Source of the DNA: a bacterium | Lineage (GTDB): Bacteria; JADJOY01 | Length of the DNA stretch: 20,000 nt | Reading direction: 5' to 3' | Assembly (NCBI GenBank): GCA_046331705.1 | Contig: JAXLQJ010000038.1 | Location: 51,346-71,345, forward strand | Part shown: one piece after another, positions 11,663-13,954 of the stretch | How the letters are laid out: every line of letters starts with the position of its first letter | Numbering within the stretch: the first letter of the stretch is position 1 | Program-made: the position numbers and the translations under genes | The notes under the pieces: model-generated | What the model was told of the DNA's origin: nothing | Seen by the model: only the letters and a program-made list of their open reading frames with translations | Databases searched by the model: none

Positions 11663-11713
11663 TGCCGTTCCTCCAGCGCGCGCAACATAGGAACGACGAC
11701 GAGCTTGGGCAAC

Positions 11714-11751
11714 GACGGCGTCTGGACGGCGTCTGGAGGAGTCTGGAGGCG
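11714..11751. repeat. Short tandem direct repeat with 10-11 bp unit
   Basis: GACGGCGTCTG GACGGCGTCTG GAGGAGTCTG GAGGCG in the divergent intergenic region. Confidence 0.6.
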
Positions 11752-11840
11752 CGTGTCGGCGGCGGCGCCGCCCGCTCGCGCGTGCGTCGGCTCGATGGCG
11801 ATCGTGTGACGGCGCGAGCGCGATTTCGTGAGCGCGAGCC

Positions 11841-11869
11841 TTGACACGGGTCGAGGGGTCGGACACCTT
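11841..11869 (+). promoter_or_regulatory. Sigma70-type promoter candidate for the regulator-speD-speE operon
   Basis: Perfect TTGACA (11841-11846), 17-bp spacer, weak -10 CACCTT (11864-11869). TAGTAT at 11889-11894 is an alternative -10. Confidence 0.5.
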
Positions 11870-11884
11870 TCGCGTTTACCGAAG

Positions 11885-11923
11885 GGTTTAGTATATGAAA
11901 CAGCAAGTTTCATTAACTAGACC
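11885..11923. promoter_or_regulatory. AT-rich palindromic operator, probably bound by the adjacent XRE-cupin regulator
   Basis: GGTTTAGTATATGAAAC-agcaa-GTTTCATTAACTAGACC: 17-bp arms with 14/17 inverted match, strongly AT-rich against the GC-rich background. Confidence 0.7.
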
Positions 11924-11947
11924 TGCGGCGGAGGTAGGGGCAGGACC

Positions 11948-12490
11948 GTGTCGCATCCGATCGGCGAGAGGATCAAGACGCTTCGGCTTTCGAGCCAGCT
12001 GACCCAGGAAGAGCTCGCGGCTCGTTCCAACCTGACGAAGGGTTTCATCTCGCAGGTGGAGCGCGATCTCACCTCGATCTCGCTCGAGAACCTGGCGCTC
12101 ATGCTCTCGGCCCTCGACACCAGCCTGGCCGAGTTCTTCGCGGAGGAAGAGGAGAAGCCGGTCGTCTTCCGGAGGTCGGATCGGCGTTCGATGGAGTGGG
12201 GAGGATCGCAGAATCTCGAGGTGCTGGTGCCGGGCGGCACCAACCGGACCATGGATCCGACGGTCGTCCATCTCGCGGCCGGAGAGGCGTTCGGCTGCGA
12301 GCGACCGCACGAGGGCGAAGAGCTCGGATACGTGCTGACCGGAACCGTCCGCTTGCGCGTGAGCAAGAAGAGCTGGCTGCTCAAGGCCGGCGAGTGCTTC
12401 TACTACCGCGCGAACCGGATGCACGGCTTTCAGAACGAGGGCACGAACGAGGCACAGGTGTTGTGGATCGCGTCGCCGCCGCGACTGTGA
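11948..12490 (+). CDS. XRE-family HTH plus cupin transcriptional regulator (PuuR-like)
   Basis: IGERIKTLR...[29 protein letters not shown] forms the [15 protein letters not shown]...GECFYY...HGFQN...VLWIASPP forms the cupin. Confidence 0.92.
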
Positions 12491-12522
12491 CGCGAGCCGA
12501 TTTCCACGGTGGGAAGGTGAAC

Positions 12523-12573
12523 ATGGACCGAGGCATGGTGCCTCGGGGTTGGGACCGAAACACCATTGGGAGG
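12523..12573 (+). promoter_or_regulatory. Candidate structured RNA leader upstream of speD
   Basis: Two mutually exclusive stems: CCGAGGCA/TGCCTCGG and ATGGTG/CACCAT, the latter ending next to the GGGAGG RBS. Function is inferred only. Confidence 0.4.
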
Positions 12574-12582
12574 ATGGACCTG

Positions 12583-12990
12583 ATGAAAGCGCTTGGGCGC
12601 CATCTCTTGGTGGAGTACAGCGGCTGCGATCACGCAACGCTGAAGGAAGTGCCTCGAATCCAGGCACTGATGGAAGAAGCGGCGCGCGTTTCCGGCGCCA
12701 CGATCGTTCAGACCTGCTTCCATCAATTCAATCCGTACGGCGTGAGCGGAGTGGTGGTGATCGCGGAGAGCCATCTCGCGATCCACACCTGGCCCGAGCA
12801 CGGCTACGCGTCGGTGGACATCTACACCTGCGGCGACTCCGTCGATCCGTGGAAGGCGCACGCGTTCCTGCAGCAGGCGCTCGGCGCCAGCGACATCGAG
12901 ACCAACGAGCTCTTCCGCGGCCAGCTCGGCGACGAGCCGGCGTCGGCGAAGTACGGCAAGTCCGCGTTGCCCATCGTCCTGCACGCCTGA
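12583..12990 (+). CDS. speD: S-adenosylmethionine decarboxylase proenzyme (class IB)
   Basis: LGRHLLVE...GATIV...[38 protein letters not shown] with the E-S self-cleavage site. GGGAGG RBS at 12568-12573. Confidence 0.95.
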
Positions 12991-13031
12991 TCGGGAGCGC
13001 GCGGGCGCGTGCCCCGCGCTCCTCGTTCCCC

Positions 13032-13067
13032 CGGCGGCGCCGAGCCCAGGCCGGCTCGGCGCCGTCG
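13032..13067. other. Strong GC-rich intergenic hairpin between speD and speE
   Basis: CGGCGGCGCCGAGCC-caggcc-GGCTCGGCGCCGTCG: 15-bp stem with one G-U pair and no U-tract. Confidence 0.7.
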
Positions 13068-13117
13068 CTCACTCGCCGAGGCGCTCGCGCGGACGGCGCG
13101 CGAGAGGGAGGCCGCTC

Positions 13118-13954
13118 ATGGAGCTGTGGTTCACCGAGGCGCACCCGTCGCACCGCGGGCTCACGTTCCGCGTGCGCCGTGTTCTGGAATCGCGGAAGAG
13201 CCGTTACCAGCAGATCGACATCCTGGAGACCGAGGATGGCGCCCGGCTCTTCGTCCTCGATGGCATGGTGATGCTCACCACGCGCGACGAGTTCGTCTAT
13301 CACGAGATGCTCGCGCACGTGGCGCTCTTCGCCCACCCCGCGCCGCGCCGCGTGCTCATCATCGGCGGCGGCGATGGTGGCACCGCCCGCGAGGCGATCA
13401 AGCACCCTACCGTCGAGCACGTCGACTTGGTCGACATCGACGAGGACGTCTTCGAGCTCTCGCGCCGGCACCTGCCGGAGACCGCGGTCTCGTTCGACGA
13501 CCCGCGGGTCCACCTGCGCGCCGAGGACGGCGCCGCGTTCGTGCGCGAGGCGAAGACTCCCTACGACGTGGTGCTGGTCGACTCGACCGAGCCGATCGGC
13601 CCCGGCGCGGTGCTCTTCGGCGCCGAGTTCCACGCCGACATCCACCGCGCCCTCGGGCCCGACGGCATCATGGCGTGCCAGAGCGACACACCGTTCTTCG
13701 ACGGCGAGACCATCCGCACCCTGCACCGCGCCGTGCGCCCGATCTACCGCTCGCTACACCTCTACCTGGCGTCGGTGCCCGTGTACCCGAGCGGGCTGTG
13801 GAGCTTCACGCTCGGAACCAAGGGCGGCGCCGCCGGCGTGCGGCCCCGCGCACTCAGGACGCCACCCGCCGACTGGAAGCTGCGCTACTACAGCGCCGAG
13901 GTTCACGACGCGTGCTTCGCGCTGCCGCCGTTCGTCGCCGAGCTGGTCAGCTAG
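13118..13954 (+). CDS. speE: Polyamine aminopropyltransferase (spermidine synthase)
   Basis: MELWFTE, SRYQQI, LDGMVMLTTRDEFVYHEMLAH, VLIIGGGDGG, VDID, DSTEPIGP, YPSGLWSF, F-LPPF. GGGAGG RBS. Confidence 0.95.
   Translation: MELWFTEAHPSHRGLTFRVRRVLESRKSRYQQIDILETEDGARLFVLDGMVMLTTRDEFVYHEMLAHVALFAHPAPRRVLIIGGGDGGTAREAIKHPTVEHVDLVDIDEDVFELSRRHLPETAVSFDDPRVHLRAEDGAAFVREAKTPYDVVLVDSTEPIGPGAVLFGAEFHADIHRALGPDGIMACQSDTPFFDGETIRTLHRAVRPIYRSLHLYLASVPVYPSGLWSFTLGTKGGAAGVRPRALRTPPADWKLRYYSAEVHDACFALPPFVAELVS

Follow-up and report, generated by a model that had tools for sequence, protein, structure and literature searches.

In the stretch of DNA analyzed here (the window), 20,000 nt from a genome of an uncultured phylum (G000; 8.2 Mb, 70% GC), the gene for a PuuR-like transcription regulator is followed, after a short gap, by speD, the gene for S-adenosylmethionine decarboxylase (AdoMetDC). 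The question raised by this locus is whether the gap is ordinary spacer or part of a device that controls the synthesis of SpeD at the level of RNA. Translational control of AdoMetDC is well established in eukaryotes. To our knowledge, little is known about such control in bacteria, the sole validated bacterial polyamine riboswitch being a variant of SAM-I, and no bacterial speD leader of the type described here was among the literature matches listed. Comparison of the locus among related genomes supports the presence of a conserved, undescribed RNA-level element on the plus strand, located at the leader and translation-initiation region of speD. Its most likely identity is a lineage-specific structured leader and initiation region that serves as a translational throttle or regulator within an operon opened by the regulator gene. 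The parts of the locus needed first are the following.

12491 to 12582, plus strand: operon-internal speD leader, 92 nt (direct reading of the window; list of open reading frames)
12583 to 12585, plus strand: true start codon of speD, ATG here and TTG in one relative, 9 nt past GGAGG
12583 to 12990, plus strand: speD, encoding a Bacillus-type (SpeH-like) AdoMetDC proenzyme (PF02675, E = 1e-42; TIGR03330, 146 bits against a cut-off of 75.65)

Read directly from the window, the stop codon of the regulator gene is TGA at 12488 to 12490 and the start codon of speD is ATG at 12583, which confirms the 92-nt gap reported in a first-pass annotation of this DNA. The Pfam domain of SpeD starts at HLLVEY, six residues beyond this ATG. 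Our sample of the phylum comprises six genomes in all: G000 and four others share a genus, and the sixth belongs to a second genus. All six have the leader, and searches with blastn and nhmmer found it as a single copy in G000. The genome collection yielded just three metagenome-assembled genomes of the family, all previously known, after which SpeD identity falls from 87% to at most 63%. The metagenome collection added no close relative, with a best identity of 62%.

A conserved hairpin in the leader

12512 to 12517, plus strand: GGAAGG, a purine-rich motif resembling a Shine-Dalgarno (SD) sequence, kept in all six leaders (alignments)
12528 to 12546, plus strand: hairpin A, made up of CCGAGGCA (12528 to 12535), a UGG loop (12536 to 12538), and UGCCUCGG (12539 to 12546; TGCCTCGG in DNA), a perfect 8-bp stem found in the minimum-free-energy (MFE) fold of all six genomes

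The perfect 8-bp hairpin that the first-pass annotation had described, with its two arms and TGG loop, was confirmed. Taken in one sequence alone, such a hairpin is not remarkable. Perfect 8-bp hairpins with loops of 3 to 8 nt number 2051 in 3.0 Mb of the G000 genome, or ~0.063 per 92 nt, which is about twice the count obtained in mononucleotide shuffles, and the 92-nt leader folded alone has a z-score of -1.59, with 14 of 200 shuffles as stable. The 142-nt sequence made up of the leader and the first 50 nt of speD has a z-score of -2.48, with 3 of 200 shuffles as good. What places hairpin A above chance is that it is kept in all six related genomes, in each case within the genome's own MFE fold.

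The stem varies in a way that bears on the molecule in which the pairing takes place. Among the six genomes we observed one double change (the window has A-U where the others have G-C), three C-to-U changes, independent of one another, that turn Watson-Crick pairs into G-U pairs, and one bulged U. The loop is 3 to 6 nt long and contains (A/G)UGG in every genome. Read from the minus strand or as a DNA palindrome, the C-to-U changes would give A-C mismatches. The pattern therefore points to RNA pairing on the plus strand and not to a DNA palindrome serving the neighboring regulator. Elsewhere in the leader, the GGA at 12526 to 12528 is not conserved, and G005 lacks the 5' part.

An intrinsic (Rho-independent) terminator or attenuator was also considered and rejected. 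Hairpin A is followed by GGUUGGGACC in the window, no U tract lies 3' of it in any of the six genomes, and there is no terminator-like site between 11700 and 13200.

A frozen translation-initiation region

12559 to 12623, plus strand: nucleotide-invariant block holding the SD, the start codon, and codons 1 to 14 of speD, interrupted only by a 2-nt indel at 12581 to 12582
12560 to 12576, plus strand: 5' strand of a predicted SD-sequestering helix, ACACCAUUGGGAGGAUG, including the SD GGGAGG at 12568 to 12573 (RNAalifold)
12589 to 12600, plus strand: mini-hairpin GCGC-UUGG-GCGC in codons 3 to 6, invariant (RNAalifold helix 4)
12601 to 12616, plus strand: 3' strand of the predicted SD-sequestering helix, CAUCUCUUGGUGGAGU, in codons 7 to 12, with the rare codons CAT and TTG within it (RNAalifold)

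No stretch of the regulator-speD-speE locus is more highly conserved than the block at 12559 to 12623. Across 2.26 kb aligned from five genomes (G004 was left out, having a short contig), its two parts are the longest invariant runs of the whole locus, 41 nt at 12583 to 12623 and 22 nt at 12559 to 12580, with all other runs at most 20 nt long. In the same five-genome alignment, the spacer between speD and the spermidine synthase gene speE has just 0 to 4 invariant columns of 21.

Conservation at the beginning of speD extends to synonymous sites. Within codons 2 to 16, 14 of the 15 codons whose amino acid is invariant are identical in all six genomes, as compared with 46 of 91 in the remainder of speD (Fisher p = 0.0013). 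Applied to the regulator gene, this comparison gave 3 of 8 near the start and 37 of 113 elsewhere; for speE it gave 2 of 5 and 101 of 202 (five genomes; an indel lies near the start). The codons fixed in positions 2 to 9 of speD include several that are rare in this genome: AAA (6% of Lys codons), CTT (3% of Leu), CAT (18% of His), and TTG (7% of Leu).

The consensus structure predicted by RNAalifold consists of hairpin A and a 15-bp helix that joins 12560 to 12576 with 12601 to 12616. All 15 pairs of this helix are invariant, with 100% of cells paired. It includes four consecutive G-U pairs (12566 to 12569 with 12607 to 12610), and it encloses the start codon together with the GCGC-UUGG-GCGC mini-hairpin. 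Because hairpin A is kept in six of six genomes, the SD and the 5' coding block are invariant, and the synonymous sites are frozen, we interpret the element as an RNA-level feature tied to the translation of speD. The cause of the freeze itself could be a tuned helix, the footprint of a factor, or initiation kinetics.

A proposed partial occlusion of the ribosome-binding site

The explanation that we favor, and to which we give slightly less than even credence, is that the leader and initiation region place SpeD synthesis under post-transcriptional control through occlusion of the SD. The element would have two modules. The first would be the GC-rich stem-loop of hairpin A (12528 to 12546), acting as an upstream structural or stabilizing unit. 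The second would be the frozen initiation region (12559 to 12623), in which the SD and the CACCAUU preceding it would pair with codons 7 to 12 of speD (12601 to 12616), while the start codon would stay in the enclosed loop next to the small GCGC/GCGC hairpin. A ribosome-binding site partly occluded in this manner would set the frequency with which speD is translated from the operon transcript, or would let that frequency be modulated. We infer that the SD helix exists in vivo and restricts translation, and that polyamine, temperature, or protein may modulate it.

Parts of this arrangement are familiar from other systems. As in fourU- and ROSE-type RNA thermometers and other SD-sequestering leaders, the SD is predicted to be part of a helix with many G-U and A-U pairs, and the start codon to lie in an enclosed loop; however, the partner strand here lies inside the coding sequence (codons 7 to 12) and not upstream, and the helix is in the MFE fold of only one of the six leaders. 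The 5' untranslated region (UTR) of Schizosaccharomyces pombe spe2 (PMC6961545) is likewise a structured leader on the mRNA of the same enzyme that acts on translation, although it is eukaryotic and cap-dependent and has no sequence relation to the speD leader. As for the operon transcript on which such control would act, a contig from an RNA library covers 12319 to 12533, crossing the stop codon of the regulator gene into the leader with one difference, and a second, from a relative similar to G003, runs from hairpin A to 12650. These contigs cover only parts of the stretch, and gaps in their coverage carry no information, but they fit co-transcription of the regulator gene and the leader.

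Several observations weigh against SD occlusion as the explanation. Only six closely related genomes were available and no further close relatives were found, making a proper covariation test impossible. Just 1 of 35 consensus pairs has changed on both sides, and the observed covariation score is reached in 234 of 500 shuffles, so that covariation is not statistically supported. The SD helix cannot be judged by covariation in any case because its pairs never vary. It occurs in the single-sequence MFE fold of one full leader of the six (G005), the other five favoring varied pairings among several GGUG and CACC elements, and the local fold of 12547 to 12632 has a z-score of only -1.22. GC-rich hairpins are present in the non-conserved speD-speE spacer as well, which indicates that spacer hairpins are commonplace in this genome. 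Moreover, the RNA-library contigs may come from contaminating DNA.

The codons themselves raise a further difficulty. When speD was recoded synonymously 1000 times according to genome codon usage, 55% of the recodings folded as stably as the native sequence and 31% occluded the SD at least as well (opening energy 6.05 kcal/mol for the native sequence, 5.28 +/- 2.3 kcal/mol for the recodings). The native codons are thus not special for SD occlusion. Because the conserved His-Leu-Leu motif of SpeD gives an anti-SD sequence whatever codons are used, the codon freeze is not simply explained by selection for occlusion.

Alternative explanations

The alternative that survives best, which we nevertheless consider rather unlikely, is that a generic intercistronic hairpin lies next to a strong ribosome-binding site of the ordinary kind. 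In that case hairpin A would be a stabilizer, a stop to processing, or a weakly terminator-like element of a sort frequent in this GC-rich genome, and the frozen block would reflect selection for efficient initiation alone, with no regulation. The genome-wide frequency of perfect 8-bp hairpins given above agrees with this explanation, as do the GC hairpins in the speD-speE spacer of every genome and the finding from synonymous recoding that the native codons produce no special occlusion of the SD. AT-rich rare codons near start codons are, furthermore, a general trait. In other lineages the same gap holds different hairpins or none; for instance, in the lineage of locus L007, two of three genomes have hairpins and their sequences differ. 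However, hairpin A keeps its position and its sequence, unlike the hairpins of the speD-speE spacer, and the synonymous freeze is specific to speD, being absent at the starts of the regulator gene and speE. The invariant block (12559 to 12623) also reaches 24 nt upstream of the speD start and 41 nt into the coding sequence, which exceeds what a ribosome footprint would need.

A trans-acting factor is an unlikely but coherent second alternative. Under this explanation, a CsrA-type protein would bind GGA motifs (GGAAGG at 12512 to 12517 and AGGAUGGA at 12570 to 12577, over the SD), or a small RNA or another protein would bind the frozen block, and translation would be repressed. CsrA (PF02599) scored above the cut-off in four of the six genomes including G000, and the two genomes with no match are 74% and 90% complete. 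The GGA motifs (GGAAGG and AGGAUGGA) are conserved in all six leaders, two of them at the SD, and the AGGAUG there presumably resembles the core of the consensus obtained for CsrA by systematic evolution of ligands by exponential enrichment. A long invariant block with no covariation suits a footprint as well as it suits a helix. On the other hand, every strong SD contains GGA. The speD leader resembles leaders repressed by CsrA or RsmA in that GGA occurs both within it and over the SD and in that the genome encodes CsrA. Such leaders have two or more GGA motifs, one overlapping the SD and typically one in a hairpin loop, whereas the loops of hairpin A have UGG, and the GGA at 12526 to 12528 is not one of the conserved motifs.

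A metabolite-sensing riboswitch, which we regard as quite unlikely, deserves closer attention because it is nearest to what the first-pass annotation proposed. Its aptamer would consist of hairpin A and its flanks (GGAAGG, the UGG loop, and CCGAA(A)CACCAUU) and would bind spermidine, S-adenosylmethionine (SAM), decarboxylated SAM (dcSAM), or methylthioadenosine, with CACCAUU pairing either with the UGG/GGUG elements or with the strand in the coding region, so as to open or close the SD. The conserved unpaired nucleotides around a covarying stem would suit such an aptamer. The (A/G)UGG of every hairpin loop can pair with the CCAU 5' of the SD, and several rival GGUG/CACC pairings are present. 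The gene context is also right: according to Salvail et al. (Cell Rep 2023, PMC10853860), the spermidine riboswitch is a SAM-I variant that lies before, and controls, speE, speB, speD, and ldcC. Spermidine is further reported to bind and stabilize a GGA-rich stem-loop RNA (PMC13382137) and to bind the S. pombe spe2 5' UTR (PMC6961545).

The two-state switch put forward in the first-pass annotation was built on elements that do exist. ATGGTG at 12535 to 12540 is complementary to CACCAT at 12561 to 12566, and GGGAGG at 12568 to 12573 begins one base after the latter. The core of this alternative pairing (fold B), (A/G)UGG with CCAU, is possible in all six genomes, its register being shifted by one base in G003 and G004, and its variation is either one-sided (A-U to G-U) or requires the register shift. 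The mutually exclusive switch itself is not supported, in that fold B costs some 5 to 11 kcal/mol relative to the MFE fold in every one of the six genomes (5.2, 5.0, 11.6, 7.3, 9.2, and 11.0 kcal/mol). As modeled, fold B is possible but not competitive without a stabilizing partner.

Searches for known or related RNA families also spoke against a riboswitch. Rfam cmscan of 12300 to 12800 at E <= 10 returned no plus-strand family and only a chance match to Twister-P5 on the minus strand (E = 4.6), and no family reached its gathering score in connection with the leader when the whole window was scanned. With no Rfam family matching, SAM-I included, the remark in the first-pass annotation that the element does not look like SAM-I proved accurate. 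A covariance model of the element (R1), run over 100 speD loci (six of this family and 94 others), scored only the six family leaders; the best E-value among the 94 others was 0.22. Weak matches at the right place in four loci (L076, L041, L111, and L158; E-values of 0.3 to 2) probably reflect similarity of the SD and coding sequence. The motif was thus found in six genomes only, the metagenome collection having no close relatives. In addition, G005 lacks the 5' part of the leader, and covariation is not significant. Sensing of a ligand by the RNA would also be less necessary because a PuuR-like transcription factor, a sensor protein, is encoded immediately upstream.

The comparison with the validated spermidine riboswitch leads to the same place. 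In both cases a cis-acting RNA lies 5' of polyamine-synthesis genes and feedback logic would be expected, but the validated switch (PMC10853860) combines a four-stem SAM-I aptamer with an intrinsic-terminator platform. The speD leader has no match to SAM-I (RF00162-type) and no terminator-like site, is 92 nt long with one stable hairpin, and would act, if at all, on translation. We accordingly rejected membership in the SAM-I-variant class, there being neither a four-way-junction match nor a terminator platform. A more specific proposal, which we consider equally improbable, is a small translational switch in which spermidine or dcSAM would bind the GGA- and G-U-rich RNA. The ligand would stabilize the SD helix, in which four G-U pairs stand in tandem, over the rival pairing of CACCAUU with the UGG-loop and GGUGG elements of the hairpin A domain, thereby shutting off SpeD synthesis. 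This switch would be one face of a wider, unrecognized habit of leader devices in operons that join a PuuR-like regulator to speD.

A translated leader, either an upstream open reading frame (uORF) coupled to the speD start or an N-terminal extension giving a longer proenzyme, appears very unlikely. The first-pass annotation had noted an ATG at 12523 that is in frame with speD and would add 20 residues, as well as the repeated ATGGACC at 12523 and 12574, and the list of open reading frames and the window bear out these observations. Eukaryotic AdoMetDC is controlled by uORFs (MAGDIS), a start-like (A/G)UG is present in the loop of hairpin A in all six genomes, and in G001, G003, and G005 the frame from the loop ends at a UGA overlapping the speD start. 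The same gap in a second phylum, described below, holds a frame of fixed length, 12 codons, that has an SD-like motif of its own and a stop codon overlapping the start of speD. Nevertheless, only two of the six genomes have the ATG at 12523. In G001, G002, and G004 the counterpart of the ATG at 12574 precedes the start by 7 nt and is hence out of frame in these three genomes. From the loop start to the speD start there are 48, 47, 46, 47, 45, and 47 nt (frames 0, 2, 1, 2, 0, and 2), the outcome being two in-frame fusions, three uORFs that end on the speD start, and one out-of-frame run-on. With 1- to 2-nt indels inside the putative frame, coding is unlikely in the leader. No start codon, frame, or peptide is conserved across the six genomes, and we therefore rejected a regulatory leader peptide or uORF.

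This sets the locus apart from leader-peptide systems such as the AdoMetDC uORFs and the enterobacterial speFL leader peptide, which reportedly controls a polyamine gene (bioRxiv 10.1101/604074), even though short frames 5' of a polyamine gene occur in all of them and the frame ends on the speD start in three of our six genomes. One genome, G004 (L033/L004), has TTG in place of ATG at the speD start through a 2-nt difference. Its loop GTG is in frame with speD, which could mean a 15-residue N-terminal extension or an error in the metagenome assembly, this genome being 74% complete.

Finally, it is hardly credible that the 19-bp palindrome of hairpin A is a DNA operator bound by the adjacent XRE-family regulator, for although a perfect inverted repeat does lie beside the gene of a dimeric helix-turn-helix regulator, the relatives show G-T mismatches, a bulge, and spacers of 3 to 6 bp, which fit RNA pairing and not a symmetric protein site, and an AT-rich, partly conserved palindrome 5' of the regulator gene is better suited to that role.

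Of the original proposal of a cis-regulatory RNA upstream of speD, then, the part that is supported is a conserved RNA-level feature made up of hairpin A and the frozen block; the two-fold switch, the leader peptide, and metabolite sensing are not supported.

Other lineages with a regulator gene before speD

The regulator-speD arrangement is not confined to this phylum. A regulator-like gene precedes speD in 9 of 177 loci outside the family. Among the 180 loci for which a start was assigned, 12 have this arrangement, including 3 family members. These counts are a lower bound because many loci have short flanks. The nine loci are among the closest relatives of SpeD, and their gaps measure 15 to 148 nt.

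In a second phylum (locus L056; labeled "Candidatus Tectomicrobia"), the regulator was found in 36 of 51 genomes, and speD follows it at 47 to 99 nt in all 30 loci fetched. GC-rich members have a GC hairpin 5' of the SD. In fifteen loci (L229 to L252), whose gap measures ~52 nt, there is a common open frame of 12 codons, roughly M-x-R-R-F-x-F-G-G-S-x-x, that starts with ATG in nine, TTG in three, GTG in one, and CTG in one, the start being absent in one. An SD-like GGGAG mostly lies upstream of the frame, its TGA stop overlaps the speD start, and its Gly-Gly codons, GGA GGA, are the SD of speD. The frame is possibly a bacterial counterpart of the AdoMetDC uORFs. It is only a candidate because open frames of 12 codons are not rare and the substitutions show no coding-type pattern, there being no excess at third positions (entropy by codon position 0.65/0.88/0.63). 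The synonymous freeze at the beginning of speD is only a trend in this phylum (5 of 9 as compared with 18 of 66, p = 0.093).

We rejected a hairpin shared across the lineages that carry regulator and speD, as the sequences differ and R1 matches none of them. Because R1 recognizes none of the other leaders, the likeness across phyla is architectural and not demonstrable homology. A short sequence, GGAGG(U)AUGGA, does lie just 5' of the speD start in three distant lineages that have the upstream regulator (GGGAGGAUGGACC in the window, AAGGAGGAUGGAAAA in L007, and AGGAGGUAUGGACA in L111).

Genomic context of the leader

11886 to 11917: AT-rich palindromic stretch 5' of the regulator gene, with TGAAAC (11896 to 11901) and GTTTCA (11907 to 11912) arranged as TGAAAC-N5-GTTTCA
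11948 to 12490, plus strand: PuuR-like transcription regulator with an XRE helix-turn-helix and a cupin domain (Pfam HTH_3 and Cupin_2; NCBIfam PuuR NF007408)
13118 to 13954, plus strand: speE, spermidine synthase / polyamine aminopropyltransferase (NF002010, 338 bits against a cut-off of 260)

Among NCBIfam models the regulator matches PuuR NF007408 best, with a full-length match of 75 bits. Since this is far under the cut-off of 211, we describe the regulator as PuuR-like and not as an equivalog. Upstream of its gene, the AT-rich palindrome is partly conserved in an alignment of five genomes, within a host genome of 70% GC, and a conserved TTGACA lies at 11841 to 11846. Judged by sequence, the two are likely the candidate promoter and operator of the regulator-speD-speE unit, with the palindrome as the putative operator. 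A scan of 11700 to 13200 found no full sigma-70-like promoter and zero terminator-like sites, a weak result given that the promoter type of this organism may differ.

The speD-speE spacer (12991 to 13117) has two strong GC-rich hairpins, at ~12997 to 13025 and ~13036 to 13063, and GC-rich inverted repeats are also present in the spacers of some relatives. A dispersed repeat of the REP or MITE type was rejected as an identity for the leader, which has one copy in G000 (blastn and nhmmer) and not many. Three relatives (G001, G003, and G004) do carry a dispersed repeat of ~100 nt or longer in many copies (L197, L199, L200, L204 to L206, L209, L210, L215, and L216), with tandem copies ~158 nt apart. 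That repeat shares a 19-mer, with one mismatch, with 12539 to 12557 of the G000 leader; the match is probably due to chance because the relatives' own leaders lack the 19-mer. DNA sequencing runs with the locus are labeled as activated sludge, sludge, wastewater, and anaerobic digester, from 13 studies among the matches listed, and 14 DNA runs contain at least half of the sequence words of the locus.

Implications for the control of speD

At present the element has the status of a candidate motif, known from few sequences and with no significant covariation. The conserved, structure-prone leader and the frozen initiation region nonetheless offer a small RNA (~130 nt) that could be probed for responsiveness to polyamines or proteins, located in an operon with a gene for a PuuR-like sensor and in an uncultured phylum of activated sludge. 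Were the polyamine-responsive switch real, it and the 12-codon frame of the second phylum would together form a bacterial counterpart of the uORF and 5' UTR controls of eukaryotic AdoMetDC. More broadly, layered control of speD by a transcription factor and a leader may be commoner than annotated, since the same gene pair in another phylum has a different-looking device.

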